A stretch of DNA of 32,000 bases from Clostridia bacterium (GTDB lineage: Bacteria; Bacillota; Clostridia; UMGS1810), in contig JAFQHQ010000199.1 of the NCBI GenBank assembly GCA_017397885.1, positions 8,603-40,602 of the forward strand, written 5' to 3'. Shown one piece after another: positions 3,144 to 28,783 of the stretch. A program made the position numbers and the translations under genes. How positions within the stretch are numbered: the stretch's first letter is position 1; the number at the start of each line of letters is the position of its first letter. The notes beneath the pieces are model-generated. The model had not been told where the DNA came from, searched no databases, and saw only the letters and a list, made by a program, of their open reading frames with translations.

Positions 3144-4511
3144 TCATTGCGACTGAAGCATTTTTGAATATGCTTTTTTGTGAACTATGAGATATGTTGT
3201 AACATGCATCAATATAACCACACACCATGAAATCGGCCAACAAAGGAAAAGGGTTTCGGGGGTGTGGTTCATCGGAAGAACAAAACTAACCCAAAGTATA
3301 CGAAAACCGCAAGCGCCAATCAATGAGTTTATGGCAGATATTGACGAATAGCCCATACCTCTCAGCGTTCCTGCCATAACTTCCATAATTCCGCATATAA
3401 AATACGGAAGGCCGGTGTAGGTTATTCTTATAATGCCATGCTCAATGGCTTCGGCAGAGTCTGTTATGTATATGCCCAAAAGCTGTTTTGCAAAAATGAC
3501 TGTAAGCATGCCCAAGACAAACCCGATAACGCTTACGCAGCCAATGGAAACAAATATTGTTTTTTTGATTCGTTTTTCATTTTTGGCACCGTAGTTTTGA
3601 CTGACAGATGTAAGCGTTGCCTGATAAACAGCATTCATTGCAGTGTAGACAAAGCCCTCAATGTTTGCCCCTGCAGCATTTCCTGCAATGGCTTCCTTGC
3701 CGAATGAATTTACCGAAGATTGAATAACAGTGTTTGCCAAGGCAAACATCATGCTCTGCAAAGCCGCAGGAATACCGATTTTAAAAATATTTGCAACTTC
3801 TTTCCTGTAGAGAGTGAGTTTAGCTAAAACCAGCTTGTATGACCCTTCCGCTCTCATGAGAGTGACAACAATCGCCGCCGCAGAAAGACAGTTCGAAACC
3901 GTTGTGGCAATTGCAACACCTGCAACACCCATGTGAAAAACAATAACAAGTATCAGGTTAAGCACAACATTGACTACACCCGATGCCGCAAGAATGTAAA
4001 GAGGTCGCTTTGTGTCGCCCACAGCCCTCAAAACAGCCGCACCGAAGTTATATATCATGCTTGCGGGAACACCTGCAAAAATAATTCGCATGTAAAGAAC
4101 CGCGCCCTCCAAAACCTCACCTTCGGGAGTAGACATCAACATGAGAAGTTTGCGTGCAAAAACAAGGCCTATCAAAGACGCAACAAAGCCCACAATAACA
4201 CTAAGCGCCATGGACGAATGAACGGCTCTGTGAACACCGCCCACATCTCTCGCACCATAGTTTCGGGACACCAGAACCGAAGCTCCGATGGAAATGCCTA
4301 TGCAACCGTTTGTAATGAGTGTGCTCAAAGAGCCCGTTGCACCAACCGATGCCATGGCAGTGCTTCCTGCAAAACGGCTGACAACAATGACATCTGCCGC
4401 ATTGTAAAAAAGCTGCAAAAGATTACCGAGAATAAGAGGAACTGCAAACAGTATGATATTTTTAAATATCGGACCGTTAACCATGTCAATTTCATAAGAT
4501 TGTCTGCTCAT
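3144..4511 (-). CDS. MATE-family (MOP superfamily) efflux transporter / possible flippase
   Basis: 12-TM-like hydrophobic profile. The N-terminus 'GPIFKNIILFAVPLILGNLLQLFYNAADVIVVSRFAG' is typical of MATE. Start moved to Met11 (ATG 4511-4509) because GGAGG (4524-4520) lies 8 nt upstream. The ORF-track start at 4541 would overlap the LRAT-like gene by 4 nt. Confidence 0.85.
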   Translation of the reverse strand: MSRQSYEIDMVNGPIFKNIILFAVPLILGNLLQLFYNAADVIVVSRFAGSTAMASVGATGSLSTLITNGCIGISIGASVLVSRNYGARDVGGVHRAVHSSMALSVIVGFVASLIGLVFARKLLMLMSTPEGEVLEGAVLYMRIIFAGVPASMIYNFGAAVLRAVGDTKRPLYILAASGVVNVVLNLILVIVFHMGVAGVAIATTVSNCLSAAAIVVTLMRAEGSYKLVLAKLTLYRKEVANIFKIGIPAALQSMMFALANTVIQSSVNSFGKEAIAGNAAGANIEGFVYTAMNAVYQATLTSVSQNYGAKNEKRIKKTIFVSIGCVSVIGFVLGMLTVIFAKQLLGIYITDSAEAIEHGIIRITYTGLPYFICGIMEVMAGTLRGMGYSSISAINSLIGACGFRILWVSFVLPMNHTPETLFLCWPISWCVVILMHVTTYLIVHKKAYSKMLQSQ

Positions 4512-4537
4512 TTTATATGCCTCCAAAAACGTATTTG

Positions 4538-4942
4538 TCAAATCTTTATGATTTTGCTTCTTATTTTCGCACGTACATCATCCAAAAAAGAACGCTTTTC
4601 GCCAAAATAGCACTGATTTGCAAAATGTTCACAGTTGTTGTTTAAAATGTTGTATCCTTTTTCACCGACATGGGAAAGAGCCGTTTCAACAATATCACGT
4701 GGACGGCGCCGCCTTTTCTTTTCGTCGCCCTCGCATTCAAGGGTTTCAACAAACTCACCGTTCGAAAAACTTTGAACATCTGCAATCATTACTGCAATAT
4801 CATCGGGCGGAGTGTCACCGTTATCGGGCATACCAAACTCTACGACGGTATTTTCATCAACATAAATTCCATAATGATAATAAAACCTTACCTTAACACG
4901 AATCATATCACCGTATTCGGGGGTTTTTTGAGTCCATTTCAT
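4538..4942 (-). CDS. LRAT/PLAAT (H-RAS-like suppressor, NlpC/P60-related) family Cys-His acyltransferase/phospholipase homologue
   Basis: 134 aa. The His box 'YYHYGIYVD' and the signature 'NCEHFANQC' (catalytic Cys of the NCEHF motif) are both present. No TM segment. The start ATG overlaps the ACP stop as ATGA (4942-4939). Confidence 0.7.
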   Translation of the reverse strand: MKWTQKTPEYGDMIRVKVRFYYHYGIYVDENTVVEFGMPDNGDTPPDDIAVMIADVQSFSNGEFVETLECEGDEKKRRRRPRDIVETALSHVGEKGYNILNNNCEHFANQCYFGEKRSFLDDVRAKIRSKIIKI

Positions 4943-5184
4943 TTTTCCCGCACCTTGCTCTCCACAACATCAATTGCATCCTGAACGGTTTTAATTTTTT
5001 CAAAATCAGAATTGTCGAACCTAATGGAATATTTTTCCTCAAGTGTCATTGCCATATACAAAAATGAGATAGAATTCATTCCTATATCTTTGCGTAAATC
5101 CGATTTTTCACTGAAAGTTGAAACATCAATATCATCACCGAGTACTGCAACAAACATTTCTTTGAGTTCTTCTACCGTTGCCAT
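4939..5184 (-). CDS. Stand-alone acyl carrier protein
   Basis: 81 aa four-helix-type sequence with a phosphopantetheine-site-like 'DIGMNSISFLY' (Ser codon at 5073-5071). Start trimmed to ATG 5184-5182 because GGGGAGGA lies 7 nt upstream. It begins 1 nt after the stop of the upstream gene. Confidence 0.8.
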   Translation of the reverse strand: MATVEELKEMFVAVLGDDIDVSTFSEKSDLRKDIGMNSISFLYMAMTLEEKYSIRFDNSDFEKIKTVQDAIDVVESKVREK

Positions 5185-5185
5185 G

Positions 5186-5851
5186 TTAATTCCTCCCCAT
5201 ATCTTCATATATTTTTCTGCATTCTGTCATTTTTTCAAACACCAAATCGGCATATTCATTTATATTTTTAATGCCTTTTATCTCCCCTGTCCCAAAAGCG
5301 TCAATGGGTTCTCCTATTACCATGCAGTTGCGTTTGTGTGTTTTTGTTTTGCGTGAAACATACACGGGAATGATGGGAACTTTCGCCTGCATTGCCATAA
5401 GAACAATACCCGACTTTATGGATTTCATTTCGTCGTCACGGTTTATGCCCCCCTGCGGAAACAAAGCAAGAACATGCCCTTCTTTAAGAATTGAAACCGT
5501 TTTTCTCATTGACTCTATGTCACAGATATTACGGTCGATTTTTATGCAACCCACACCCTTTAACAAACTGCCCACAATCTTGTTTTCCATAACAACTTCC
5601 GCCGCCAAAAAAAACATTCGTCTGTACCAGAAAAGGCTTCCAAGCAGAAGCGGGTCTTTGAAGCATGTGTGATTTGCCGCAATGATTGCCCCACCTTTGA
5701 TTTTTTGTTTGGCTTTTTCAGAAACAAAAATCTTTTTGATTCTGAAAGCAAGAGGTAACCACATGCACAGCATTCTTGCAAAATCCATCGGAAAATGCCT
5801 TATATCAAAAAGTCTCGGTTTTTTTATCTTTTTGTTGTTATTGCTTTTCAT
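5186..5851 (-). CDS. PlsC/LPLAT-family acyltransferase (copy 2)
   Basis: HX4D motif 'NHTCFKD', 'FPQGG' and 'VPIIPVYV' (LPLAT motifs I, III and IV). The start is uncertain: Met31 at 5851 gives a 14 nt overlap with the upstream LPLAT, and alternatives exist at 5881 and 5941. Confidence 0.75.
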   Translation of the reverse strand: MKSNNNKKIKKPRLFDIRHFPMDFARMLCMWLPLAFRIKKIFVSEKAKQKIKGGAIIAANHTCFKDPLLLGSLFWYRRMFFLAAEVVMENKIVGSLLKGVGCIKIDRNICDIESMRKTVSILKEGHVLALFPQGGINRDDEMKSIKSGIVLMAMQAKVPIIPVYVSRKTKTHKRNCMVIGEPIDAFGTGEIKGIKNINEYADLVFEKMTECRKIYEDMGRN

Positions 5852-6500
5852 TTTTCTTTTCCAATCTTTTTTCGAGTTCATCTTTAAGAGCATAGCTCTT
5901 ATCTTCAAGCATTTTTGTGAGGTTTTTGAGCTCATCATCACTCACATTCTCGCTCTTTACATAATCCCTTAGATAAATCGCTTCGCCAATAATAACATGC
6001 GCTCTCTTAAACAATCCGTAATTACCGTCGGTATAGACAGGAATTATGGGGGCATCGGTACGAAGAGCAATAAGGACTATACCCGGCTTGTAGGGAAAAG
6101 GTTTTCCGCCGACGGGTAGCCTGCCCTGAGGAAATACACCCACACTGCCGCCGCTGTCGAGCACATTGAGACTTTCTTCAACAAAGGAAAAATTGCAGGC
6201 ATCCCTGTCCACAAAAATTCCCCCGATTTTATATAAAAACCATGAGAAAAACTTTCCTTTTTTAAAAAGCACCTCTGCCATAAGAAAGTGGATATTTCTG
6301 AAAAAGAAAACAATCAAATATAACACAAAATCCATAAGTGAAGTGTGATTTGACATAAGAATTGCGTTCCCGGGCAAATTACGCTTTACTTTTTTGTTTT
6401 GTTTATATACCTTGGGCTTAAAAAACAGCAATCCGGGTAATACACCGGTAAGCTTTACAAAGCCCAAAACAAACGAACTCATTTTACTGGTTTTTTTCAT
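5838..6500 (-). CDS. PlsC/LPLAT-family acyltransferase (copy 1)
   Basis: HX4D motif 'NHTSLMD', 'FPQGR' and 'APIIPVY', with a hydrophobic N-terminal segment. The start is 2 nt after the stop of the AMP-ligase gene. Confidence 0.8.
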   Translation of the reverse strand: MKKTSKMSSFVLGFVKLTGVLPGLLFFKPKVYKQNKKVKRNLPGNAILMSNHTSLMDFVLYLIVFFFRNIHFLMAEVLFKKGKFFSWFLYKIGGIFVDRDACNFSFVEESLNVLDSGGSVGVFPQGRLPVGGKPFPYKPGIVLIALRTDAPIIPVYTDGNYGLFKRAHVIIGEAIYLRDYVKSENVSDDELKNLTKMLEDKSYALKDELEKRLEKKNEKQ

Positions 6501-6502
6501 AT

Positions 6503-8413
6503 CTATATATGCCTTTCAATGTATTGACAAATTTCATGAACGGTGTAACACAAAACATCTTTTTCGGATGCCGAAACAGAAAACTCCTCGGCAAGATCCG
6601 TCAAAATCGAAAAATATTGCATGCTGTCGGCTCCCATATCAAGCATAATGTGAGCATGAATATCAATTGATTCAGCATCCGTATTCAGTCTCTTTGCCAC
6701 AATGGACTTAACCTTTGCAAGAATTTCACTGTTGTAGACAGCCTCACTGCAATCCGACAAAACCGCTTTTGTAAAATCATAAATATTAACAGTTTTATCT
6801 GCCAACGCCTTGAGAACATAGGTTCTGCTGATTTTTGCCGCTCCCGGAGATGTGATATTATCTGTTGTATAATAGATTTTTGCCACCCTCGATGTCAAAG
6901 GAAGACTCTCGTTTATGGCAATGATTGTGTCAAGCAATTCATTTCTTTTTGAAACAGACATATATTTTCCGATTTGAACAATCATGGAAACGGTTTTCTT
7001 TCCTTCGTTTTCAATTCCGAGGACACAAAAGTTTTCTGCCTGAGGAAGTGCAAAACACTGTTCAACAACATCGGGGTTGATGTTCTCGCCGTTGTCTCCG
7101 ATAATCGTATCACCATTTCGGCCTTTTACATAATAGTATCCGTCATTTTGAGTTAAGATGTCACCGCTGTCAAAATAGCCATCCATTGACTGCTCCCGGC
7201 CATTTATGAGCATTTTGTCACAAAGCGAATCACCCTTAATCAAAAGAGTGCCTTTGTCACCGATTTCATAGTCAACCGACGCAAAGGGTTTTCCTATGGA
7301 ATTGAGATTTTTGTGTTTGGGACGGGTTCTCAGTTCAACCGACGTTATACCGATTTCGGTCATGCCGTAGCCGTTGTGCAAATTGTACCCTATTGCATTT
7401 ATAAGCTCCAGTGCCGAGCTTCGCACATAGCTTCCGCCGCTTATGCAAAACTTTATGCTTTTGCCAAACAGTTCATCGGTAACTTCGCTCATTATTTTTT
7501 GGGAAAGCTTCATCCCGAGATGCGGAAAAATATTTTGCAAGCCTGTGCAAAGTCTTATACCCCGTTTCAGCTTGGCAAGCTTTTTGTCGCCTGCCTCTTT
7601 TGCCTTTTTCATGACAGAATTTTCAATGGTATGCCACAAAAGCGGAACAGCAAACACATGGGTAACCTCATGTTTTTTGCAGGTTTTCAAAATGGTGTCC
7701 GATGAATAATCTTTCAAAAACACAATTGTAACTCCAAAAAACGAAAACCAAAAATACACAGCAATCAAACCAAAAATGTGATAAAAAGGCAAAAACGCAA
7801 GATTTTTAATTCTGCCATTGTGGTCTGCTGCGATTTCGGGATATTTTTTCATGAATGATTTAACATTTAATATCTGAGACGAAAACCTTTGACCGCTGTA
7901 GAAACAAATTGTCTCTTTCAAAGATGTTCCCGATGTGGAAAGAGCAATTTCGTTTTCAAACTCACCTTCAAAACCTGTCTTCCCCTCAAGTGAATCAATG
8001 TCAATAAACTCTGTATCAAGTTTTGTGTCACCTTTACCCACGGTATATTTTATGCCGAGGGTTTTGAGCGCAGAATTTGCCATTCCGGGAAGCTGCCTGC
8101 AGTTTACAAGATAGGGTTTGTTTCCGCTTCGGAGAATTGCCCAGAAAGCCACAATCCAATCAATGCAATTTTCCATTTCAAGAGCTACAAAGCCATGGGT
8201 TGCACCAATTTTTGCATACAGAGCTTCGGAAGCTGATTCTATTCGTTCTTTAATTTGTTCATATGAGTATGAGCGAATTCTGAAACCGTCCGTATCTTCC
8301 GCCAGCACGCCCGAATTCGCAAACATAACATTAAAAATTGCCTCAAAATCCATTTTGGAATTTTCAAGGACACCTATATTATTGCGAATAATACTTTTAA
8401 TTTTTTTGTTCAT
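6503..8413 (-). CDS. ANL-superfamily AMP-forming acyl ligase fused to a C-terminal carrier (ACP/PCP-like) domain
   Basis: 636 aa. Motifs are 'NGYGMTE' (A5), 'YFDSGDIL' (A7), 'GRNGDTIIGDNGENINPDVVE' (A8) and 'SPGAAKISR' (A10 Lys). Residues about 558-636 form a carrier domain with 'LDMGADSMQYF' (Ser codon at 6625-6623). Confidence 0.85.
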   Translation of the reverse strand: MNKKIKSIIRNNIGVLENSKMDFEAIFNVMFANSGVLAEDTDGFRIRSYSYEQIKERIESASEALYAKIGATHGFVALEMENCIDWIVAFWAILRSGNKPYLVNCRQLPGMANSALKTLGIKYTVGKGDTKLDTEFIDIDSLEGKTGFEGEFENEIALSTSGTSLKETICFYSGQRFSSQILNVKSFMKKYPEIAADHNGRIKNLAFLPFYHIFGLIAVYFWFSFFGVTIVFLKDYSSDTILKTCKKHEVTHVFAVPLLWHTIENSVMKKAKEAGDKKLAKLKRGIRLCTGLQNIFPHLGMKLSQKIMSEVTDELFGKSIKFCISGGSYVRSSALELINAIGYNLHNGYGMTEIGITSVELRTRPKHKNLNSIGKPFASVDYEIGDKGTLLIKGDSLCDKMLINGREQSMDGYFDSGDILTQNDGYYYVKGRNGDTIIGDNGENINPDVVEQCFALPQAENFCVLGIENEGKKTVSMIVQIGKYMSVSKRNELLDTIIAINESLPLTSRVAKIYYTTDNITSPGAAKISRTYVLKALADKTVNIYDFTKAVLSDCSEAVYNSEILAKVKSIVAKRLNTDAESIDIHAHIMLDMGADSMQYFSILTDLAEEFSVSASEKDVLCYTVHEICQYIERHI

Positions 8414-8458
8414 AATTATATCCTCTGGTGTCTGCCGTTAATCGACATATTCTATATA

Positions 8459-8487
8459 AATATAACACAAATCCAAATAAAAAGCAA
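8459..8487 (-). promoter_or_regulatory. sigma-A type promoter candidate for the six-gene acyl operon
   Basis: On the minus strand: TTGCTT (8487-8482), a 17 nt spacer ending in TGT, then TATATT (8464-8459). It lies downstream of two terminators and about 45 nt upstream of ATG 8413 (AGAGGA RBS). Confidence 0.4.
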
Positions 8488-8520
8488 TACGACAGACAGA
8501 TATTTTGAACTTGTTTGAAT

Positions 8521-8541
8521 AAAAAAGCAGGCTGAGCCTGC
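8521..8541 (-). terminator. Rho-independent terminator (second of a tandem pair)
   Basis: GCAGGC/GCCTGC stem (8527-8532 and 8536-8541) followed on the minus strand by T6 (8526-8521). Confidence 0.55.
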
Positions 8542-8611
8542 ACCCTCGTCGCGAGCATAGTTTCACATTCATCTCATCTCGCGAGCGAAATTCGACATAA
8601 ATTCCTATAAA

Positions 8612-8657
8612 ATAAAAAGGGAATGTAAATTAATTTGCTGAATTAATTTACTTTCCC
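8612..8657 (-). terminator. Rho-independent terminator immediately after the zinc-ribbon triad
   Basis: 17 bp AT-rich stem with 1 mismatch (8619-8635 / 8641-8657), a 5 nt loop, then a T5-containing tract on the minus strand (8618-8612). It starts 10 nt after the stop codon of the 8668 gene. Confidence 0.7.
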
Positions 8658-8667
8658 TTTTACTATA

Positions 8668-9273
8668 TTATACAAAGAAAAGCATTACATTGAGAAACAG
8701 TGATAACGCAAACACACCAAGCGAAATAAATGCCGTTATCTTTCCTGCCAAAGCCATACCTCTCAATCTTGAAACGGGCTTACTTGACATGACAATACCC
8801 ACAATTGTGACAGGTAACATGAAGGCTGCCACAACAAGCATTGATATGGCTATCGGAACAGCTTCATATGCATAAGAAACTGTTGAAAGAAAAGCTGCAA
8901 CATAAAGAAGATGATAACCGGAGAGAATGAGACCCAAAATGCCGAAAACCATTCCTACTATTGCTGTGGCTTTTCCGGTCGCAGGTGCCGCTGAAGATGC
9001 AGGGATGATGTGCGATGTAACCTGAGGATGGTATACCGGGGAAGCATCGCTGCAAGATTCGAATGTCTCAACAAAAGTTGCCGCAGGTGTTGAACTAACG
9101 GGAACCTCCGTTTTTTCGGGCAAAGGCTCGGGTGCAGCAAAAGCTTCTGCATTATCAACAGGGACAACAGGTTCACTTACTTCCTCCACAACTTCCGAAA
9201 GTTTTTCACCGCAATTGGGGCAAAAATTGAATTTTTCTTCGTATGTATTTTTACAGTTATCACAAATATACAT
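8668..9273 (-). CDS. Zinc-ribbon plus 3-TM membrane protein, paralogue 1 (DUF4190-like C-terminal region)
   Basis: N-terminal 'MYICDNCKNTYEEKFNFCPNCG' (CxxC...CxxC), an approximately 85 aa P/A/S/E-rich linker, then hydrophobic segments with 'ATAIVGMVFGILGLIL' and 'RLRGMALAGKITAFISLG'. GGAGG lies 7 nt upstream of the ATG. Confidence 0.8.
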   Translation of the reverse strand: MYICDNCKNTYEEKFNFCPNCGEKLSEVVEEVSEPVVPVDNAEAFAAPEPLPEKTEVPVSSTPAATFVETFESCSDASPVYHPQVTSHIIPASSAAPATGKATAIVGMVFGILGLILSGYHLLYVAAFLSTVSYAYEAVPIAISMLVVAAFMLPVTIVGIVMSSKPVSRLRGMALAGKITAFISLGVFALSLFLNVMLFFV

Positions 9274-9302
9274 TTGTATTCCTCCTATGTATCATCAAAA
9301 TC

Positions 9303-9923
9303 TTACAGTCCAAGATAAATGATGAATGCAATTGCATAAACAGCCACCGCAATGAAGCCTGTGATTTTGCCTGCAAGAGCCATGCCACGGCCGTTTTTAG
9401 CTATGAACGAAAGTATGAGTCCGATGATGAGGAAGGGAAGTATGAGGATTGAAAAAACAACCATGAAAACATTTCCGACCGTGTCTACAGCCTCATCTGC
9501 GCTCATGTTAATGTCATCATAGTCATCGTAATCGTAATCATAATCATAATCATCATAATCATGATAACCATTATAGCTGTAATCTTCATCGTAAGTTAAA
9601 GACTCCACAGTGCTTACGCTGATAGATCTCGAGTCAACCTCATCAGCAACCTCAGAGCCGATTGACGTTGCAATCATGCAAATCAACATTACAAATGCGC
9701 AAATAAGTGCCCATATGCCGAAAATCATTCCCATAATAGCAGGTGCTTTACTGCGTTTTGGTTCAAGAGTATCTGCATATACAGGCGCCGAATACGAAGG
9801 TGCACTGTATTCTTTGAATTCCGGTTCGGGAGCGGATGCATGCTCCACAACTTCGCCTCCGCACTGTGAGCAGAACTTTGCGGGAGTTGAATAAGTTTGA
9901 TTACACTTTGTACAAATATACAT
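9303..9923 (-). CDS. Zinc-ribbon plus 3-TM membrane protein, paralogue 2 (with a Asp/Tyr-repeat loop)
   Basis: Start trimmed to 'MYICTKCNQTYSTPAKFCSQCGG' (ATG 9923-9921, GGAGGA upstream). Shares 'APAIMGMIFGIWALI' and 'NGRGMALAGKITGFIA' with its neighbours. The loop between TM1 and TM2 contains YDEDYSYNGYHDYDDYDYDYDYDDYDD. Confidence 0.8.
   Translation of the reverse strand: MYICTKCNQTYSTPAKFCSQCGGEVVEHASAPEPEFKEYSAPSYSAPVYADTLEPKRSKAPAIMGMIFGIWALICAFVMLICMIATSIGSEVADEVDSRSISVSTVESLTYDEDYSYNGYHDYDDYDYDYDYDDYDDINMSADEAVDTVGNVFMVVFSILILPFLIIGLILSFIAKNGRGMALAGKITGFIAVAVYAIAFIIYLGL
9514..9598 (-). repeat. Imperfect tri/hexanucleotide coding repeat (GAT/GAC-TAT/TAC)n encoding the DY-rich loop
   Basis: The plus strand reads ...gtcatcatagtcatcgtaatcgtaatcataatcataatcatcataatcatgataacc... 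Tandem atcgta/atcata units are visible directly. Confidence 0.8.
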
Positions 9924-9951
9924 TTTTATTTCCTCCAAAAAATAATATAAA

Positions 9952-10410
9952 CTATGCTACCATAGCAATAAACCATGTTAAAAGGTTAATTCCCATAGAT
10001 ATGAAGCTTGTTATTTTGCCCGCAACAGCCATTCCACGACCGGCTTTGGCTTTTGAAGCCAAAACAATACCCATGACAATTGCCGGAACAATCAACGCCG
10101 TCACCACCATGAGAGACGGAATTGCATCCGAAAAATCATATAAATAAGAGTCTGACATGTCAACAATTGCAACAAACAAAATAAATGACAACATCACGCT
10201 TGAAATCCCCAAAATCATGCTTACGATTGCAGGGGCAACACTTCCTGTCGGAGAAGTTGACACACCATGCTGTGTACCATATACAGATGCAGAAAAATCA
10301 TTAAATGAATTTTGTGTTACAGATGACTTTTCCACTACCACCCCGCCACACTGTGCGCAAAACTTTGCAGGGGTTGAATAAGATTGATTACATTTTGTAC
10401 AAATATACAT
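9952..10410 (-). CDS. Zinc-ribbon plus 3-TM membrane protein, paralogue 3 (shortest)
   Basis: Start trimmed to 'MYICTKCNQSYSTPAKFCAQCGG' (ATG 10410-10408, AGGAGG 7 nt upstream). Shares 'APAIVSMILGISSVML' and 'AGRGMAVAGKITSFIS'. The upstream 41 codons of the ORF-track call cover the promoter region. Confidence 0.8.
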   Translation of the reverse strand: MYICTKCNQSYSTPAKFCAQCGGVVVEKSSVTQNSFNDFSASVYGTQHGVSTSPTGSVAPAIVSMILGISSVMLSFILFVAIVDMSDSYLYDFSDAIPSLMVVTALIVPAIVMGIVLASKAKAGRGMAVAGKITSFISMGINLLTWFIAMVA

Positions 10411-10445
10411 AATAAACCTCCTGTTATAAAATTTTATACACAAAA

Positions 10446-10474
10446 AGTATATCACACATTGCCAATTATGGCAA
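10446..10474 (-). promoter_or_regulatory. sigma-A type promoter candidate for the zinc-ribbon triad
   Basis: On the minus strand: TTGCCA (10474-10469), a 17 nt spacer containing TGTGA, then TATACT (10451-10446). The -35 element is one arm of the inverted repeat TTGCCA-N4-TGGCAA (10459-10474). Confidence 0.5.
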
Positions 10475-10516
10475 GGAGTTTTTGTGAAAAAATATCGGAT
10501 AATCTTAATCTCGACA

Positions 10517-11212
10517 TCAAAGGCTAACCACATGCATTATGAATTCTTCAGTTTCGCACTTAATCTTTTCAAACTCTTCCGAAAAAGCATCCACAGCAAA
10601 AAAATCGGTTATTCCTGTGCCTATACACTTAAAATATGCCTCTTTCACCGTCCATATTTCAACAAATCTGCGTGCCTCATCACAGCTTAAATCAAGAGAA
10701 AAATCTTTTTCGAAAGGTTTTTTGCCAAAAACATATTCCATTTCTTTGGGCAAGCAAACCCGCTTTGCAAGATTTGAAGGAAAGCTGCGGATTTTTTCGA
10801 TGTCTATTCCGACTCTTTTGTCCGAAACAGCAACAGCAACCGTGTCTGCACTGTGACTGATATTAAAAAACCAATGTAGATTTTGCGAAAGATGAAGCTT
10901 TCCCTTTTCGTCCGCAACAATTGTAAACTTTTCGGGATCGGACGAGGTTAATTTGCCGAGAAGCTCCCGAACCATCCATTCACCGGCAAGAGTACATTTT
11001 TTTTGAACTTCGCCTCTGAACCGTTTTACCCGTGCTTTGCGCTCATCACACATGGCAAAAAAACTTTTTTTGTATGTTTCATCGGAAAAATCCGAAATAT
11101 TCTTCACTGCATAATATATGTTGCAATCAATCTTTTCAAGATACATATGCACGGCATCACCTTTTGAGAAAACGCCTGCAACGCACTTTTTTTCATCTGC
11201 ATAATCCGACAT
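10517..11212 (-). CDS. Sfp-type 4'-phosphopantetheinyl transferase
   Basis: 'FNISHSADTVAVAV', 'VGIDIEKI' and 'WTVKEAYFKCIG' are the three PPTase signature motifs. Start trimmed to ATG 11212-11210, with AAGGAGGG 5 nt upstream. Confidence 0.85.
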   Translation of the reverse strand: MSDYADEKKCVAGVFSKGDAVHMYLEKIDCNIYYAVKNISDFSDETYKKSFFAMCDERKARVKRFRGEVQKKCTLAGEWMVRELLGKLTSSDPEKFTIVADEKGKLHLSQNLHWFFNISHSADTVAVAVSDKRVGIDIEKIRSFPSNLAKRVCLPKEMEYVFGKKPFEKDFSLDLSCDEARRFVEIWTVKEAYFKCIGTGITDFFAVDAFSEEFEKIKCETEEFIMHVVSL

Positions 11213-11272
11213 GTTTTCCCTCCTTTCGCAATATAGTATTGCAATTGACATTTTTATATGGTAAAATATATA

Positions 11273-12271
11273 TTATGTGTTTGGCTCTTTTGTGCAAAAA
11301 AATTCAACAAGAGTGTCAACATATTCTTTAAGCAGTGCATCGTTTACCGTGTACAGGCAATGCTTTGCACCACGAAATACTTTGTATTCGCACTTTAAAA
11401 GCTTTGCAAGCTTTTTTTGCGGTTTAACTTTTACGGAATTATCTTTTTCGGCACTGATTATAAGAACCTTTGCACCGATGTTTTTCATCCTGTTTTTACA
11501 TAGCAGTTTTTCAATCACGGTTATTGCTTCGTAATTCCAACGGTTTGTGCCGTATGAGTTTTGATAATTCGCATTTTTAATTCGCAAATCAAGATTATAT
11601 TTAAATCGGTTCTCACTGATGTCATTGCTTTGTTCAAGCTTTGCATTGGGGTTAAAATCCGACGTGAACTTAAATCTTGCATTCCAGCCGTTTTTCCGTG
11701 CTTCACCCTTCATAAGTTTTTTCAAAACAAATCTGGGAAATGGCGGAGTTTTCGGATAAACCATCGGCGAAGAAAGAACGGCTTTCTTAATCTTATTTTT
11801 GAAATTTGAAAGATAAAGCCCGGCAATTGCACCGCCCATGGAATGAGAATAAATATACACGGGAGCATTTTCGCAGTTTGGCTCAACAACCTGATTTATA
11901 AAACAATCCAGATCACGGGCATAATCTTCAAAGCTGTCCGCATGAGTTATTTGCGTGTTTTTGCTGTAGCGATGTGAGTTTCCGTGACAACGCACATCAT
12001 AGAGAAAAACATTGTAGCCCATGAGCATGAAATACCACGAAAGCTCATAATACTTTTTGGTAAACTCGGTGTAGCCGTGAATGACAACAATGTTGGCAAT
12101 GGGGTTTTCCACCTTAAAAAACTCATAGTACATCCGTGTTTTGTCAAAAGAAGTGAAGAAACCGCTTTGAACATAACTCTTGAGAGTTTTATTAAGTTCA
12201 TCCATTTTCTCAAAATATTCGGTTTCGTTGATGATTTCGTATTTGTATTCAGGTTTAAATAACACAGCCAA
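11273..12271 (-). CDS. Alpha/beta hydrolase, lysophospholipase / monoacylglycerol-lipase-like
   Basis: 'VVIHGYTEFTKKYYELSWYFMLMGYNVFLYDVRCHGNS' plus the nucleophile elbow 'YSHSMGG', a pattern typical of PldB/MGL-like (COG2267-type) hydrolases. The start is either TTG at 12271 or GTG at 12265, behind AAAGGAG. Confidence 0.65.
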   Translation of the reverse strand: MAVLFKPEYKYEIINETEYFEKMDELNKTLKSYVQSGFFTSFDKTRMYYEFFKVENPIANIVVIHGYTEFTKKYYELSWYFMLMGYNVFLYDVRCHGNSHRYSKNTQITHADSFEDYARDLDCFINQVVEPNCENAPVYIYSHSMGGAIAGLYLSNFKNKIKKAVLSSPMVYPKTPPFPRFVLKKLMKGEARKNGWNARFKFTSDFNPNAKLEQSNDISENRFKYNLDLRIKNANYQNSYGTNRWNYEAITVIEKLLCKNRMKNIGAKVLIISAEKDNSVKVKPQKKLAKLLKCEYKVFRGAKHCLYTVNDALLKEYVDTLVEFFCTKEPNT

Positions 12272-12312
12272 ATAGCTCCTTTAGTATAAAATTGGTAACA
12301 GAGGTGATAATA

Positions 12313-13269
12313 GTGGTATCTTCGAAGAAGAAATTGATGAAAAAGATATTAAAAGGTATTGCCATAACTATTATTATCTATATTACCCTGTCACTTGTAT
12401 CTACAAAAATAATTTATGATTCGGTTTTTCGCCACTACAGTGCAAAAGAACCCCAAAGTATTATATCCGAAAATGCACAAATGATGAAAATGCGAAAACA
12501 GTTTTCATACCCTTGTGAAAACGGCTCTCTTACAGGTCACCTTTACTATGCACCCCAATGCAAACAAGGTCTGATTGTGCTTGTGCCGGGTTTTCGTGCC
12601 GAAAGCATAGAATATGAAGGTGTGATAAACGCCCTTACAAACAAGGGCTTTGATGTTTTTGCTTTCAATCCCACCGGTCACGGCAAAGGCTCAAAGGGCA
12701 GCTCTGTGGGATATGCACAAATAATAAAAGATGTAAACTCAACGCTGAATTTTATTGACAAAAGCGAAATGTTTTTGTATGATAATATTTATCTTTTGGG
12801 TCACAGCCGCGGGGGCTACGGTATTTGCTGTGCCATGAACGGTCATGGGAGCATTGATGCCGCAGTTTGCATAAATTCGACCGACACATCAATGGATGCC
12901 ATTATGGCATATTCAACCGAATATGCAGGAAATGCCGCCTATGCCAATTATCCGTTTTTGAGCATGTATGAAAGTATTCTTTTCGGTTCGGATTTGTCTT
13001 CAAGTTCAGCAGTCAGACATATAAACAAATCGGACATTCCGATTTTTGTTATTCAAGCCCAAAATGATGAACACATCTCAAAAGACAAATATTCGCTGTA
13101 TTCAAAAATGGATGAGATAACCTCGAAAAAAGCCGAATTTTTGCTGTATAACAAAAACGGAAGCGACGGACACACATCCATCCTTTATGATAAAAACCGC
13201 ATTGCCAACCAAGACATAATTGACACCATAGTTTCATTCTACGAAAAATATTCAAACGAAAAGGAGTGA
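12313..13269 (+). CDS. Membrane-anchored alpha/beta hydrolase
   Basis: N-terminal K-rich segment and TM helix (KKILKGIAITIIIYITLSLV), nucleophile elbow 'LLGHSRGG', and a late 'NDEHI'/'DGHTS' Asp/His region. The start is uncertain: GTG 12313 lies behind AGAGGTG, ATG 12337 is also possible, and the ORF track gives TTG 12292. Confidence 0.65.
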   Translation: MVSSKKKLMKKILKGIAITIIIYITLSLVSTKIIYDSVFRHYSAKEPQSIISENAQMMKMRKQFSYPCENGSLTGHLYYAPQCKQGLIVLVPGFRAESIEYEGVINALTNKGFDVFAFNPTGHGKGSKGSSVGYAQIIKDVNSTLNFIDKSEMFLYDNIYLLGHSRGGYGICCAMNGHGSIDAAVCINSTDTSMDAIMAYSTEYAGNAAYANYPFLSMYESILFGSDLSSSSAVRHINKSDIPIFVIQAQNDEHISKDKYSLYSKMDEITSKKAEFLLYNKNGSDGHTSILYDKNRIANQDIIDTIVSFYEKYSNEKE

Positions 13270-13273
13270 TGAA

Positions 13274-14311
13274 ATGAAAAATATGGTAATTATTCCTGCA
13301 TATAAACCAAATAAAGAACTCATCACTCTTGTGGAAGAGCTTCATGGTGAGGGGGTCGGAATTGTTGTTGTAGATGACGGAAGCGGTCCGGAATATGGCA
13401 GCATTTTCGAAGCCATAACCGAAAAAGCAAAAATTGTTACCATTGTGTGCAATGCAGGGAAAGGCACCGCCCTCAAAACAGGCATGCAAACCCTCATAAA
13501 CGAATTTCCGGACTGCGAAAACTTTGTTACGGCAGACGCTGACGGTCAGCACAAAACAGCCGACATTATGCGTGTTTTCAACGAACTTGAAAGAGGTGCC
13601 GAATTTGTTTTGACAGTGCGAAAGTTCAGAGATAACATGCCTTTCAGATCGAAATTCGGAAACGCACTTTCAAGATGGATTTACACAATTTTAAACGGAC
13701 ACTATCTTGTTGACAATCAATCGGGGCTTCGCGGTTTTTTGTCAAAACACCTTAAATGGCTCGTAAAAGTGGGCGGATACAAATATGATTACGAAATGAA
13801 TGTGCTATATTATGCCGACAAGCAAGGCGTTCAGATTACCACCATACCAATTGAAGCCATATACATAGACAACAATTCGTCATCTCACTTTAATCCCGTA
13901 AAAGATACCTTCCGCATATATACACGTCTCTTTTACAGTGCAAGAATTACATTTGCCGCGTGGCTTCTCATTGAGCAGATGCTGATTTATGTTTCTGTTG
14001 TGTGGGGATATATCAATATGTACATAACCATTCCGACAATCGGCGCAACCGGGGTTGCATTCACCATAACACTAAACAAGTTTGTTGTGTTTAGAGGCTA
14101 CGCTTACAAAGATTTTTTGCGAACCATCATATACACTGTTTTAAGGTATTCGGTCTATACAATAGGATTAACCATATTCAAATTTAATCTGCCGTGGGTT
14201 CCGCTGTTTTTCTCGTTCAATCTCATTGTCATATTGATGATTCCGGCAGAATACTTCGTGCATAAGTTTTTGTATTTGTCAAAGTATAATGATATAATTA
14301 AAGATCGATGA
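13274..14311 (+). CDS. Family 2 glycosyltransferase with a C-terminal GtrA-like multi-TM region
   Basis: 'VIIPAYKPNKELITLVEEL...VVVDDGSG...TADADGQH' is a GT2 (GT-A fold, DxD) pattern. The C-terminal approximately 120 aa holds 4 hydrophobic helices including 'TLNKFVVFRG' (GtrA-like). AAGGAG RBS. The start is 4 nt after the previous gene. Confidence 0.75.
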   Translation: MKNMVIIPAYKPNKELITLVEELHGEGVGIVVVDDGSGPEYGSIFEAITEKAKIVTIVCNAGKGTALKTGMQTLINEFPDCENFVTADADGQHKTADIMRVFNELERGAEFVLTVRKFRDNMPFRSKFGNALSRWIYTILNGHYLVDNQSGLRGFLSKHLKWLVKVGGYKYDYEMNVLYYADKQGVQITTIPIEAIYIDNNSSSHFNPVKDTFRIYTRLFYSARITFAAWLLIEQMLIYVSVVWGYINMYITIPTIGATGVAFTITLNKFVVFRGYAYKDFLRTIIYTVLRYSVYTIGLTIFKFNLPWVPLFFSFNLIVILMIPAEYFVHKFLYLSKYNDIIKDR

Positions 14312-14331
14312 CAAAAAATTTATTAACTATT

Positions 14332-14355
14332 AAAGGGGCTCAAAAGCCCCTTTTT
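14332..14355. terminator. Bidirectional rho-independent terminator
   Basis: AAA, then GGGGCT, a CAAA loop, AGCCCC, then T5. It lies between the convergent GT2 (+) and plsX (-) genes. Confidence 0.7.
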
Positions 14356-14362
14356 GTTATAT

Positions 14363-15337
14363 TTAACAAAGTGCATTATGAATACGGTTGGAAAGATCGC
14401 CACTATCAAGAGTGAGTGCCAATTTTACACATTCATAAGCAGTTTTTTCATTGGCACACCCGTGCATTTTTACCACGGGTTTTTTTGCGCCCAAAAAAGT
14501 TGCACCTCCAAGATCGTTAAAGGCAAACATGGAGTGAAGAGCATTTTTCAGCTTGTCGTGAACCTCTGTTCCCGAGGCAAGCTCATCAACAATTTCGATT
14601 GCCGCCATGCCGGCAGCCTCGGTATTTTTAAGAAGCACATTTCCGGTAAATCCGTCGGTAACAACAACATCTGCCGGAGAATTCACAAGATGAGTGCCTT
14701 CGATATTTCCGATAAAATTTATGGGAAGCTTTTCGATGAGAGCATATGCCTCTTTTACAAGTGCGTTTCCCTTGTGAGGGGACTGACCTACCGACATCAA
14801 TGCCACCTTTGGTGACTCAATCCCCGCAAGACTTTGCATATAGGCATTGCCCATCAGCGCAAAATTTTTGAGGTCTTCACTTTTGCAATCGGTGTTTGCA
14901 CCGCAATCCACAAGACACACAAGTCCGTCTTTTTTACACGGAATTGCAGTTGCCAAAACAGGCGACATCAGCCCCTTAACCAATCCAAGTCTGCATATTG
15001 TACCCACAAGGAGTGCCCCTGTGTTGCCTGCGCAAATCATTGCACATGCATCAACATCATCTCTGAGCTTTTCAAGAGACATAACCATTGACGTGTCGTC
15101 TCCGCCTCTGAAAACGCAGGTGGGAAGATCGGAATCCGCAACAAAACTCTTTGTATGAAGAATCTCTATGCGGTCAAAACCAAAGCCCCGACTGCAAACA
15201 ATTTTTTCGATTTCGGATTTATCTCCCGCAAAAACAACCGAAAAATCATCCCTTTCAGCCATAGCATTCAAAACTCCGCAAACTATTGGGAAACAGCCAT
15301 TGTCCGACCCAAGAGTGTCCACAATCAACTTTTTCAT
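14363..15337 (-). CDS. plsX: Phosphate acyltransferase PlsX (acyl-ACP:phosphate transacylase)
   Basis: Collinear with canonical PlsX: 'CAGNTGAL', 'VDCGAN', 'NFIGNIEG', 'DVVVTDGFTGNVLLK' and 'KMHG'. The N-terminal motif is 'DTLGSDNG' instead of the usual 'DAMGGDxAP'. Confidence 0.85.
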   Translation of the reverse strand: MKKLIVDTLGSDNGCFPIVCGVLNAMAERDDFSVVFAGDKSEIEKIVCSRGFGFDRIEILHTKSFVADSDLPTCVFRGGDDTSMVMSLEKLRDDVDACAMICAGNTGALLVGTICRLGLVKGLMSPVLATAIPCKKDGLVCLVDCGANTDCKSEDLKNFALMGNAYMQSLAGIESPKVALMSVGQSPHKGNALVKEAYALIEKLPINFIGNIEGTHLVNSPADVVVTDGFTGNVLLKNTEAAGMAAIEIVDELASGTEVHDKLKNALHSMFAFNDLGGATFLGAKKPVVKMHGCANEKTAYECVKLALTLDSGDLSNRIHNALC

Positions 15338-15352
15338 AAAACCATCTTTCTG

Positions 15353-16990
15353 CTATTCAATAGCCATGTAATAATCATATATTTTTTGCTTTCCGGAAAC
15401 GGCACCGCACTCAAAATGAGAAAACTCATCTTCGATTGCCTCTATCAGACCGTCTGCTTCTTCGTCGCTGACATTTTCACCATAAAAAACTGTGATAACC
15501 GATTTTTCGTCAATGTCTTCAAAACTGCGAAGCAAGCCGACAACAGCACTGTTTTTATCCTCTGACACAAAACGGATTTTCCCGTCCGCAATAGCCATAT
15601 ATTCTCCTTCTTTTACGCATACTCCGTCTATTGTTGCATCACGAACAGCTTTTGTGATGCTCACCGAAACAACAGAAGAAAGAGCCATTTCCATGTCTGA
15701 AACAAAGGAATCTATGTCAGGTGCCCAGGTGTTCATCATGGAAAGTGCCGAATAGCCCTCGGCAACGGATTTTGTTTCCAGAACTCTTATGTCACATTTA
15801 TCATACATGCCGGCAGCCTGTTTTGCAGTTGCATATATGTTTGAGTTGTTTGGCAAAACAACGATATGCTCAGCAAAAAGCGAATCAAAAGCATCAAGAA
15901 AATCATGCGCCGAAGGATTGTTAGTCTGACCGCCGTCTATTATTCGGTCTGCTCCTATTTGAGCAAAATAGTCTTTTATGCCGTCGCCCATTGCAACGGT
16001 AACAATTGCATACTTAACTTTTTCGGTTTCTTTTTCAACGGAAGAAGAAACCTCACTGTGCTGAATGGACATATTTTCTATTTTAACAGATATAAATTCA
16101 CCGTAATTTCTGGCAAAAGCCAAAGCTTTTTCAGGCTTGAATGTGTGAACATGAGCCTTAACTATATCTTCATCCAAAACTGCAACAATTGAATCACCTA
16201 TGGTCTGAAGATATGAAATGAACTCTTTTATGGAAAATGCCGCTATGTTTGTTTTGGCATGCATGAGCTGAAGCACAAACTCCGTGCAATAACCATACTC
16301 CAAAACGCTGTCGGGTCCGAAACTGCTGTTTGTCAAAACATTCACATTGCTTTCACGTTCGCTTCCGACTTCAATGATTTCGCCGTCAAGATATGCACAC
16401 ATGCCCTCAATGATGTACAAAATTCCCATTCCGCCGCTATCTACAACATTTGCCTGTTTTAAAACCGGCAACAGCTCGGGAGTATGCTGAAGACTTTTGT
16501 TCATATTCATAAATATATAAGCAAAAGCATCTTTAAAATCCGAAAAATCGCCTGCGCTCTCAAGAGACTCACAGGGCTCGCGAAGAACAGTGAGCATTGT
16601 ACCCTCAACAGGATTCGGAACGGCACTGTAGGCACAGTCCACCCCTTGTCTCATCATGTCTTTAATGTCGGACACATCAATATCATCTTTTGTGCGCAGT
16701 GCATTTGCCCATCCTCGTATAAACTGTGAAAGAATGACACCCGAGTTCCCTCTGGCTGAGAGCAAAACGTTTCTCGAAAACTCCGACATCATTGAAGAAA
16801 CTGTTTCGAAATCTTCCACGCTCTTTAAAATCCCTCCGCCGAGAGTTTTCACCATATTTGTTCCGGTGTCGCCATCGGGAACGGGAAACACGTTCAAATC
16901 ATTCACCTTTGTTTCCATAAGGCACAAATTTCTGTATCCGTTGACAAGCATACCATACAAAGAATTTGCATCAAGTCTCGCTTTGTTCAT
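15353..16990 (-). CDS. fakA: DAK2-domain fatty acid kinase subunit FakA (YloV-like)
   Basis: 545 aa. The N-terminal Dak2 domain has 'LNVFPVPDGDTGTNM' and 'ARGNSGVILSQF', followed by the YloV-type middle and C-terminal domains. It sits directly downstream of two DegV genes. Confidence 0.85.
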   Translation of the reverse strand: MNKARLDANSLYGMLVNGYRNLCLMETKVNDLNVFPVPDGDTGTNMVKTLGGGILKSVEDFETVSSMMSEFSRNVLLSARGNSGVILSQFIRGWANALRTKDDIDVSDIKDMMRQGVDCAYSAVPNPVEGTMLTVLREPCESLESAGDFSDFKDAFAYIFMNMNKSLQHTPELLPVLKQANVVDSGGMGILYIIEGMCAYLDGEIIEVGSERESNVNVLTNSSFGPDSVLEYGYCTEFVLQLMHAKTNIAAFSIKEFISYLQTIGDSIVAVLDEDIVKAHVHTFKPEKALAFARNYGEFISVKIENMSIQHSEVSSSVEKETEKVKYAIVTVAMGDGIKDYFAQIGADRIIDGGQTNNPSAHDFLDAFDSLFAEHIVVLPNNSNIYATAKQAAGMYDKCDIRVLETKSVAEGYSALSMMNTWAPDIDSFVSDMEMALSSVVSVSITKAVRDATIDGVCVKEGEYMAIADGKIRFVSEDKNSAVVGLLRSFEDIDEKSVITVFYGENVSDEEADGLIEAIEDEFSHFECGAVSGKQKIYDYYMAIE

Positions 16991-16993
16991 TGT

Positions 16994-17884: not shown

Positions 17885-17886
17885 TA

Positions 17887-18837: not shown

Positions 18838-18871
18838 GTATTTAATCCCCCCTATATCTTAACATGCCTTG

Positions 18872-18900
18872 AGTATACCATAACAAGCAAAAAAATTCAA
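18872..18900 (-). promoter_or_regulatory. sigma-A type promoter candidate for the fakB-fakB-fakA-plsX operon
   Basis: On the minus strand: TTGAAT (18900-18895), a 17 nt spacer, then TATACT (18877-18872), about 35 nt upstream of ATG 18837. Confidence 0.5.
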
Positions 18901-18940
18901 CACAAAATGACAAAAAAGTAGTGCATTCTTCAACAAGATG

Positions 18941-18949
18941 TGTTATAAT
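18941..18949 (+). promoter_or_regulatory. Extended -10 promoter candidate (TGtTATAAT) for the + strand hydrolase operon
   Basis: TGTTATAAT lies about 30 nt upstream of ATG 18979 (GGAGG RBS at 18967-18971). The -35 element is poor. Confidence 0.35.
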
Positions 18950-18978
18950 AGCCTTAATTTGTTTCGGAGGTAACTTGT

Positions 18979-26171: not shown

Positions 26172-26181
26172 ATTGTCCTCC

Positions 26182-28776: not shown

Positions 28777-28783
28777 ATTAAAC

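Follow-up and report, generated by a model that had tools for sequence, protein, structure and literature searches.

What could a bacterium make with an adenylating ligase that carries its own acyl carrier domain (ligase~CP), two small acyltransferases of the lysophospholipid acyltransferase type (LPLAT1 and LPLAT2), a stand-alone acyl carrier protein (ACP), an LRAT/PLAAT-like enzyme and a MATE transporter, all encoded in one tightly packed operon? The question is raised by the minus strand of a 32,000-nucleotide stretch of contig JAFQHQ010000199.1 from a Clostridia bacterium (hereafter the window, meaning the whole stretch that was analysed). In the initial annotation the six genes were read as a self-contained pathway, not dependent on type II fatty acid synthesis (FASII) or coenzyme A (CoA), whose product is exported or flipped by the transporter. 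Our analysis points instead to the first five genes as a carrier-protein-dependent lipid acylation module, Aas-like or ElbD-like, which would work with adjacent fatty-acid scavenging genes and independently of CoA and FASII. We would put the chances of this reading at about even.

A conserved five-gene core

The ligase~CP gene (6503-8413, minus strand like the five that follow; 636 aa; PF00501 and PF00550) is separated by a 2-nt gap (TAG-AT-ATG) from the gene for LPLAT1 (5838-6500; 220 aa; PF01553). This overlaps the gene for LPLAT2 (5186-5851; 221 aa; PF01553) by 14 nt, the LPLAT2 ATG at 5851 lying within the last LPLAT1 codons and inside the longer open reading frame (ORF) 5186-5941. After a 1-nt gap (TAA-C-ATG) comes the ACP gene (4939-5184; 81 aa; PF00550), which starts at the ATG at 5184 within ORF 4939-5208 and has the ribosome-binding site GGGGAGGAA. 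An ATGA overlap joins it to the LRAT-like gene (4538-4942; 134 aa; PF04970), and a 26-nt gap with a GGAGG Shine-Dalgarno sequence (SD) leads to the MATE gene (3144-4511; PF01554), for which the start used, ATG at 4511, lies within ORF 3144-4541.

The six genes, their five junctions and the domains and motifs of their products were thus all as first described, judged by ORFs, sequence reading and Pfam, and reading of the junctions bore out the tight translational coupling. Profile searches matched AMP-binding, PP-binding, LPLAT acyltransferase, LRAT and MatE domains, with all domain calls in the six proteins exceeding the Pfam gathering scores, and the motifs LDMGADS, NHTSLMD and NHTCFKD (both HX4D) and NCEHF were present in the translations. 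Chain-building, condensation and thioesterase domains had been described as absent, and Pfam detected no KS, KR, DH, ER, C or TE domains in the six proteins and no condensation, ketosynthase, reductase or thioesterase domains in their neighbours.

A protein search with ligase~CP gave 2193 matches at E ≤ 1e-10. The top 120, at 49% identity or more, were full-length with the exception of P0087 (495 aa, partial, covering 75% of the query). When one genome per species was scanned, ligase relatives were found in 362 species, and the best 80 of these were kept as loci. Among these 80 the ligase was 46-68% identical, and all were metagenome-assembled genomes (MAGs) of uncultured gut Clostridia, belonging to Acutalibacteraceae, Oscillospiraceae, Faecousia, Congzhengia, Ornithomonoglobus, Avispirillum and a few Lachnospiraceae.

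For the comparison of gene order, six-frame ORFs of these loci, which are contig neighbourhoods, were searched with the window proteins; the term long loci is used for the 35 that extend 9 kb or more beyond the core on each side. The order ligase~CP, LPLAT1, LPLAT2, ACP, LRAT was complete in 65 of the 71 species-level loci that could be evaluated. The same gene order in this many genomes indicates that the core is more than a chance grouping, and the co-occurrence of LRAT-like, LPLAT and ligase~CP genes, for which a neighbourhood search had been proposed, was observed. The combination had not been recognised as a characterised pathway, and the literature that we searched on LRAT, ACP, Clostridia, acyl-ACP synthetase, fatty-acid auxotrophy, PLAAT homologues and LplT likewise contained no description of the cluster that we could find.

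The sixth gene behaves differently. In the window the MATE gene is co-transcribed with the core, following the LRAT-like gene with its own SD and sharing the intrinsic terminator that ends the operon (3034-3004, minus strand; a stem of 10 bp with a single mismatch, closed by a 6-nt loop and followed by a T5 run). This arrangement favours a six-gene pathway whose product leaves through the transporter. However, relatives at 50-67% identity (L001-L006 and L093/L094) lack the MATE gene, it was found in just one of the 35 long loci, where it lies upstream of the core, and no other locus examined, including the relatives at 67% identity, has it downstream. Since it is rarely near the core, it is best seen as a lineage-specific passenger of the window operon and it is not a conserved member of the module. 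Its product also belongs to the classical MatE efflux family (PF01554, 173.6 bits; TIGR00797, 202 bits against a cut-off of 147) and not to the MurJ/Wzx-type flippases. The proposed export or flipping step was rejected on both synteny and family, and we regard a self-contained six-gene export pathway as very improbable. What stands of the six-gene unit is that the genes are contiguous in the window; only five of them are conserved, with MATE outside the natural unit.

Natural fusions link the parts of the module to one another. LPLAT1 and LPLAT2 are joined in frame in approximately 20 species, giving proteins of about 430 aa with both HX4D motifs; a second LPLAT had at first seemed to be lacking in about 20 loci, an explanation that was rejected when these fusions were found in its place. 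In an exhaustive search with a profile built from the LRAT alignment, the majority of the nearest representative proteins were 335-350 aa long and, as judged by Pfam, consisted of an LRAT domain and a complete Sfp-type 4'-phosphopantetheinyl transferase (PPTase). A single LPLAT-LRAT fusion was also found (locus L089), beside ligase~CP and a second LPLAT, in a locus with no free ACP. In this locus a gene for a metallo-beta-lactamase-fold protein directly follows the fusion.

The encoded enzymes

Ligase~CP matched PF00501 with 112.3 bits (cut-off 29.9) and PF00550 with 34 bits (cut-off 20.8). Its carrier domain has the motif LDMGADS, with Ser597 as the phosphopantetheine-attachment residue. This serine, together with A5 (GYGMTE), A7 (SGD, as FDSGD), A8 (GRNGD) and the A10 lysine Lys527, is invariant or nearly so across 12 homologues down to 49% identity. 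The A4 motif FYHIFG is of the acyl/aryl-acid type, with His where amino-acid A domains have Asp. Amino-acid activation of the Dlt-like or NRPS-like kind (NRPS, non-ribosomal peptide synthetase) was considered and rejected on account of this His and the absence of a C domain. The A3 P-loop, STSGTSLKE, is non-canonical compared with (T/S)SG(S/T)TGxPKG; the family consensus is STSATSL, and the variant is itself conserved, with Ser159, Ser161 and Thr163 invariant.

An AF2 model of ligase~CP (pLDDT 77.5) had A-PCP didomains (CAR, McyG) as its top structural matches, along with MenE and the acyl-ACP synthetase AasS. The same ligase and carrier architecture occurs in FAAL-ACP and A-PCP loading didomains of the lipopeptide or CAR type. 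Unlike those didomains, ligase~CP has no downstream KS, C, R or TE domain, and its chain is proposed to pass to LPLAT-type transferases.

LPLAT1 and LPLAT2 (PF01553; 69.5 and 81.7 bits) are paralogues with 31% identity (BLASTP E 4e-27), and their nearest, and only, solved relative is PlsC of T. maritima (5KYM; E 7e-13 for LPLAT1). Motifs I (HX4D, as NHTSLMD and NHTCFKD), II and IV are kept in 60 LPLAT1 and 57 LPLAT2 orthologues; the conserved motifs of LPLAT1 are NHTSLMD, GGIFVDR, FPQGR and PIIPVY. Motif II has the form G-x-I-x-x-D-R, with the Arg conserved in the 57-60 orthologues. By the known PlsC motifs, an Arg at this position speaks for a glycerolipid acceptor that carries a phosphate. 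Leaving aside the generic AGPAT domain, which came first, both proteins had their best full-length NCBIfam matches to acyl-[ACP]--phospholipid O-acyltransferases of the Aas type (E values of 6e-16 and 9e-18), in agreement with the analogy to Aas that had been drawn initially. Taken with the likeness to Aas and PlsC, this Arg points towards an acceptor based on glycerol phosphate.

The stand-alone ACP matched PF00550 with 36 bits and fell under every AcpP equivalog cut-off in NCBIfam. Its Ser38 is invariant in 75 orthologues, in the motif N-S-I and not D-S-L. An Sfp-type PPTase gene (10517-11251, minus strand; PF01648 and PF22624) is present in the window, and its product is likely to activate both the free ACP and the carrier domain of the ligase. 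A PPTase gene adjoins the core in 14 of the 35 long loci.

The LRAT-like protein (PF04970, 71.3 bits; cut-off 24.3) can be aligned to human PLAAT3, and its AF2 model (pLDDT 90.5) has the fold of the PLAAT N-terminal catalytic domain, with Foldseek matches to PLAAT3, HRASLS2 and PLAAT4 (7ZOM, 4FA0, 4DPZ; E 4e-7 to 1e-6, target-normalised TM-score 0.74-0.81). The PLAAT/LRAT-type assignment therefore agrees with both sequence and predicted fold. His23 and Cys104, the dyad of the NCEHF context, are invariant in 66 orthologues, as is Cys111; the third residue of the triad is Gln in 64 of the 66 and Glu in the window. The permuted papain-like fold and the His/Cys dyad are shared with the mammalian PLAAT/HRASLS/LRAT enzymes and with LnsA of S. 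aureus, a characterised bacterial relative of the LRAT family that carries out N-acylation (PMC13559823). In contrast to the PLAATs, the window protein lacks a C-terminal transmembrane anchor and has Gln or Glu, not His, as its third triad residue; in contrast to LnsA, it lacks a signal peptide. No signal peptide and no hydrophobic or transmembrane helix were found in it, and the C-terminus forms a basic amphipathic helix (residues 119-132); the enzyme is predicted to be cytoplasmic. Lipoprotein N-acylation in the manner of LnsA was rejected because the signal peptide is absent. A database protein outside the window, P0191, has 11 tandem LRAT domains in 1125 aa (Pfam E 1e-275).

PLAAT/LRAT enzymes form an acyl-Cys intermediate from the acyl chain of a phospholipid. 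Two roles can be envisaged on this basis. Deacylation of phospholipids, giving lysolipid acceptors, would fit the LPLAT-LRAT fusion, while unloading or editing of acyl-carriers would fit the ATGA coupling to the ACP gene and the fusions with PPTase. In the initial annotation, two or three acyl chains were supposed to be installed on a head group or lysolipid; the LRAT-like enzyme may equally be a deacylase or a carrier-editing enzyme. In the literature searched, no link between the LRAT/PLAAT family and carrier-protein chemistry was found described.

Linkage to fatty-acid scavenging genes

The core is accompanied in the window by a fatty-acid scavenging block (11273-20791, on mixed strands), whose genes were assigned from Pfam and NCBIfam matches. 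The block begins with a lysophospholipase-L2-like hydrolase (11273-12271, minus), a membrane-anchored hydrolase (12292-13269, plus) and a GT2 glycosyltransferase (13274-14311, plus) that resembles the polyprenyl-phosphate-sugar synthases AglJ, PpgS and ArnC and has a C-terminal multi-helix membrane region. PlsX (14363-15337), FakA (15353-16990) and two DegV/FakB proteins (16994-17884 and 17887-18837) follow on the minus strand, and a membrane-anchored alpha/beta hydrolase (18979-19962) and a CE4 deacetylase with DUF3473 (19916-20791) on the plus strand complete it. PlsX (TIGR00182, 246.2 bits against 243.4), FakA (YloV, 522 against 396) and the DegV proteins (232 and 183 against 99.7) pass the curated NCBIfam cut-offs and are bona fide members of their families.

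The internal order of the block is identical in dozens of species. Of the 35 long loci, 34 have FakA, PlsX, GT2 and alpha/beta hydrolases, among them the second, membrane-anchored one of the block, no more than 10 kb from the core. The core can adjoin either end of the block and face either way, and at least four arrangements were seen. As the linkage has outlasted these rearrangements, it is not mere inherited gene order. The pathway can therefore hardly be called self-contained, as had been supposed, the more so since in one lineage the genes form a single operon.

This lineage (L087, L088, L090, L091 and L092) is the one with the LRAT-PPTase fusion. Its genes form a tightly spaced run on one strand, without PlsX, that starts with ligase~CP, the LPLATs, a second FadD-like ligase, ACP and LRAT-PPTase and continues with a hydrolase, DegV, an MFS_2 transporter, FakA and further hydrolases. 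The runs of L087 and L088 end with GT2, and the contig of L090 stops short of that point. The second ligase has no carrier and has a canonical P-loop (GGTTGKSKG in L087), and its gene lies directly before that of the ACP. It is present where PlsX is absent, and vice versa.

The transporter between DegV and FakA is of the MFS_2/GPH family (12971-14332 in L087, 12951-14330 in L090) and has no counterpart in the window. MFSD2A, a mammalian lysophospholipid transporter, is related to this family, and the bacterial protein could be an importer of lysolipids or fatty acids.

The module could also be no more than a part of ordinary phospholipid synthesis. In fatty-acid-auxotrophic Clostridia, the genes might encode only the standard FakAB-PlsX-PlsC synthesis with a divergent PlsC step, in which the ACP would be the only one of the cell, PlsX its loader, the LPLATs the only PlsC and ligase~CP a back-up activator. 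That PlsX passes its equivalog cut-off, that plsX lies beside fakA and GT2 and not beside an acpP gene, and that the module is near-universal in these lineages would all be expected if this were true. However, it gives no account of the LRAT-like enzyme, the covalent carrier, the two LPLATs or the dedicated Sfp-type PPTase, and operons of the L087 type manage without PlsX. We therefore consider this housekeeping role unlikely.

GT2, which 34 of the 35 long loci retain and with which the L087 operon ends, might join the CE4 deacetylase in producing an amino sugar linked to a lipid. This raises the possibility that the cluster makes a specialised lipid and not bulk phospholipid; an acylated glycolipid, a lipoamino acid or an acylated amino-sugar lipid would be candidates. 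In such a cluster, GT2 and the deacetylase would provide the amino-sugar acceptor, the LPLATs would add chains and the LRAT-like enzyme would act as an off-loading N- or O-acyltransferase, for which LnsA offers a bacterial precedent of N-acylation in the LRAT family (PMC13559823). The resemblance of GT2 to PpgS, ArnC and AglJ, the weak ArnD match of the deacetylase and the position of GT2 within the L087 single operon are in agreement with this, as are a PPTase that is dedicated to the cluster by linkage or fusion, an ACP that is not an AcpP equivalog, and the NCBI annotation of ligase~CP as NRPS-like in some MAGs.

On the other hand, the single-operon variant lacks the CE4 deacetylase, as do most long loci (11/35), and no GT-C or other final transferase was found. 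The spread is like that of core genes (362 species, fixed beside plsX and fakA) and does not show the patchy pattern of secondary metabolism, and the motif-II Arg of the LPLATs indicates a phosphate-bearing glycerolipid as the acceptor. A specialised product is possible, and is more probable than a purely housekeeping role, but we rank it clearly behind the general acylation module.

Proposed route and known systems

For the acylation module that we favour, the following route can be proposed. Membrane-anchored and soluble hydrolases would free fatty acids from dietary or host lipids. The ligase would adenylate the free fatty acid and charge the phosphopantetheinylated carrier domain that it bears itself. 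Charging of the free ACP would be a separate matter, carried out in window-type genomes by PlsX from the acyl-phosphate of FakA/FakB, and in the other lineage by the second FadD-like ligase encoded directly upstream. The paired LPLATs of the PlsC/Aas type, each perhaps served by one of the two carriers, would then transfer the acyl-thioesters to a glycerol-phosphate-based acceptor such as glycerol 3-phosphate, lysophosphatidic acid or a lysophospholipid. The outcome would be a membrane glycerolipid that is built or re-acylated without CoA or FASII. The LRAT-like enzyme would act through an acyl-Cys intermediate, either as a phospholipase A that supplies the lysolipid, in a Lands-type cycle, or in the unloading and editing of the acyl-carriers.

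A bolder version of this route would have the LRAT/PLAAT enzyme act directly on the phosphopantetheinyl carriers, resulting in a carrier-based Lands cycle. For example, it could shuttle acyl chains, with no need of ATP, between holo-ACP and phospholipids of the membrane or the host. In lineages without FASII, membrane lipids would then be assembled mainly through the island of approximately 15 genes (hydrolases, FakAB, PlsX or the second ligase, ligase~CP, ACP, LPLATs, LRAT, PPTase and GT2). We think this version improbable.

Several observations weigh against the acylation module as we describe it. All of its chemistry, that is the substrate, the product and the acceptor, is predicted from family membership. 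The P-loop of ligase~CP (STSGTSLKE) is atypical, and its specificity for fatty acids is likewise a prediction. In motif III of the LPLATs, FPQG(R), Gln replaces the Glu of PlsC in 57-60 orthologues. With the Aas equivalog models (NF005959, NF006386) both LPLATs score far too low, at 57.4 and 63.4 bits where 1221 are required and at 27.3 and 25.4 where 886 are, and at 66.1 and 75.6 bits they also miss the PlsC cut-off of 102.95 (TIGR00530); the fused LPLAT of L087 reaches 136 bits with the latter model, but only owing to its two domains. From their motifs, the LPLATs are members of the LPLAT superfamily but of an atypical subfamily, and by curated cut-offs the module is neither an Aas nor a PlsC member.

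Gene content adds to these points. The LRAT gene was undetectable in 6 of the 71 loci, and in three loci (L074, L020 and L024) the available DNA contains the core but no Fak block. Locus L089, where two LPLATs occur without a free ACP, weakens the idea of one carrier per LPLAT. Finally, the roles of GT2 and the CE4 deacetylase are not accounted for by a model of lipid acylation.

The closest precedents for the proposed acylation module combine the same activities in other ways. Aas of E. coli is a 2-acyl-GPE acyltransferase and acyl-ACP synthetase. It and the MFS-LPLAT-AAS fusions (PRK08633) show the same coupling of an LPLAT with an ANL enzyme, and a carrier-thioester donor that makes the reaction independent of CoA and FASII is proposed here as a further likeness. 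In contrast to Aas, the LPLAT and acyl-ACP synthetase activities are encoded by separate genes in the window and in all 80+ loci, the ligase has a covalent carrier, and there are two paralogous LPLATs, an extra free ACP, an LRAT-like enzyme and a dedicated PPTase; with scores of 57-63 bits against 1221, the module is not a member of that family.

ElbD of Myxococcus xanthus is an ether-lipid enzyme with the order FAR-ACS-ACP-AGPAT, and FAR-less ElbD-like proteins occur in anaerobes (PMC9131029). By its description, ElbD has the same combination of fatty-acid ligase, carrier and AGPAT-type acyltransferase. However, it is a single polypeptide with a reductase and makes ether lipids, whereas the module has no reductase and has two LPLATs, an extra ACP and the LRAT-like enzyme.

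The FakA/FakB-PlsX-PlsY/PlsC pathway of Firmicutes (PMC10146087) is represented by the FakA, two DegV/FakB and PlsX genes linked to the core. In that pathway there is neither an adenylating ligase nor a covalent carrier, and an LRAT-like enzyme and paired LPLATs are likewise absent. AcpB of E. faecalis, described as an auxiliary ACP for exogenous fatty acids (PMC6509188), is a precedent for an ACP other than AcpP that is devoted to exogenous acyl chains.

Expression signals and other neighbouring genes

A promoter candidate for the operon was read from the sequence at 8487-8459 (minus strand; TTGCTT-17-TGtTATATT, with a weak -35 and a TGt extended -10), and an SD (AGAGGA, 8426-8421, minus strand) precedes the ligase ATG. 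The candidate was not picked up by a consensus promoter scan because its -35 is too weak. The same scan returned 35 internal 'promoters' compared with 21.9 ± 4.7 in shuffled sequence, a modest excess. The intrinsic terminator of the upstream gene (8541-8527, minus strand) lies directly upstream of the promoter candidate. No Rfam family matched any part of the window at its gathering score, matches in 8350-8720 did not exceed chance level, and no known riboswitch or leader was detected by Rfam upstream of the operon.

A terminator hairpin of a zinc-ribbon gene (approximately 8650-8600) and the strong second terminator at 8541-8527 flank a stretch of about 60 nt (8545-8600, minus strand) in which the motif GCTCGCGA is repeated. 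This stretch has no Rfam match and could be a small RNA or the remnant of a leader.

Three tandem paralogous membrane proteins with weak Pfam zinc-ribbon matches are encoded upstream of the operon (8668-10410 or, as also delimited, 8668-10533; minus strand). Each has an N-terminal zinc ribbon, a low-complexity linker and three to four transmembrane helices. In 23 of 54 loci, homologues lie no more than 2.5 kb upstream of the ligase; they are also present in L087, where they are divergent. They may be part of the system or simply syntenic.

The last two genes of the scavenging block belong to a coupled run of four on the plus strand (18979-21941), which encodes the alpha/beta hydrolase, the CE4 deacetylase, a GNAT acetyltransferase and a metallo-beta-lactamase-fold protein. 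The hydrolase and deacetylase genes overlap by 47 nt, and the GNAT and metallo-beta-lactamase-fold genes follow with overlaps of 4 nt; the hydrolase and the deacetylase are the only two of the four that are conserved with the island.

Clusters of unassigned ORFs in the flanks of the compared loci were mostly antisense shadow ORFs. One of them is a real gene, coding for a membrane protein of approximately 215-230 aa with a weak DUF2953 match in 33 loci (for example 14435-15091 in L021). It has the LRAT or PPTase gene on one side and, convergent with it, the lysophospholipase gene on the other, and its product has no homologue in the window. In L093, one of the relatives at 67% identity, genes for a DgkB-like diacylglycerol kinase (DAGK_cat) and a GDSL lipase (4559-6143) are located about 4-5 kb upstream of the core; they are not conserved in other loci.

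At the far end of the window, three large consecutive genes on the minus strand (23403-31972) encode apparent cell-surface proteins of 922, 864 and 1062 aa. The first of them has a polysaccharide-deacetylase/DUF2334 domain at its end, and the last closes with three SLH repeats, which suggest anchoring to the cell wall in the manner of an S-layer. These genes appear to be unrelated to the lipid module.

Implications

The surprising element of the five-gene core is a PLAAT/LRAT enzyme that is wired to an ACP and a PPTase. If the acylation module works as proposed, this would be the first PLAAT/LRAT enzyme tied to acyl-carrier-protein chemistry that was found in the literature searched, and the LRAT-PPTase and LPLAT-LRAT fusions provide a concrete biochemical hypothesis for it. 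A large and almost wholly uncultured group of gut Clostridia, including Acutalibacteraceae, Oscillospiraceae, Faecousia and relatives of Congzhengia, would then make or remodel its membranes from host and dietary fatty acids by an undescribed route that is distinct both from FakAB-PlsX-PlsC and from Aas. This would bear on which dietary lipids these bacteria can use, on their resistance to cultivation, through a possible dependence on fatty acids, and on the bacterial lipids that are shown to the host.

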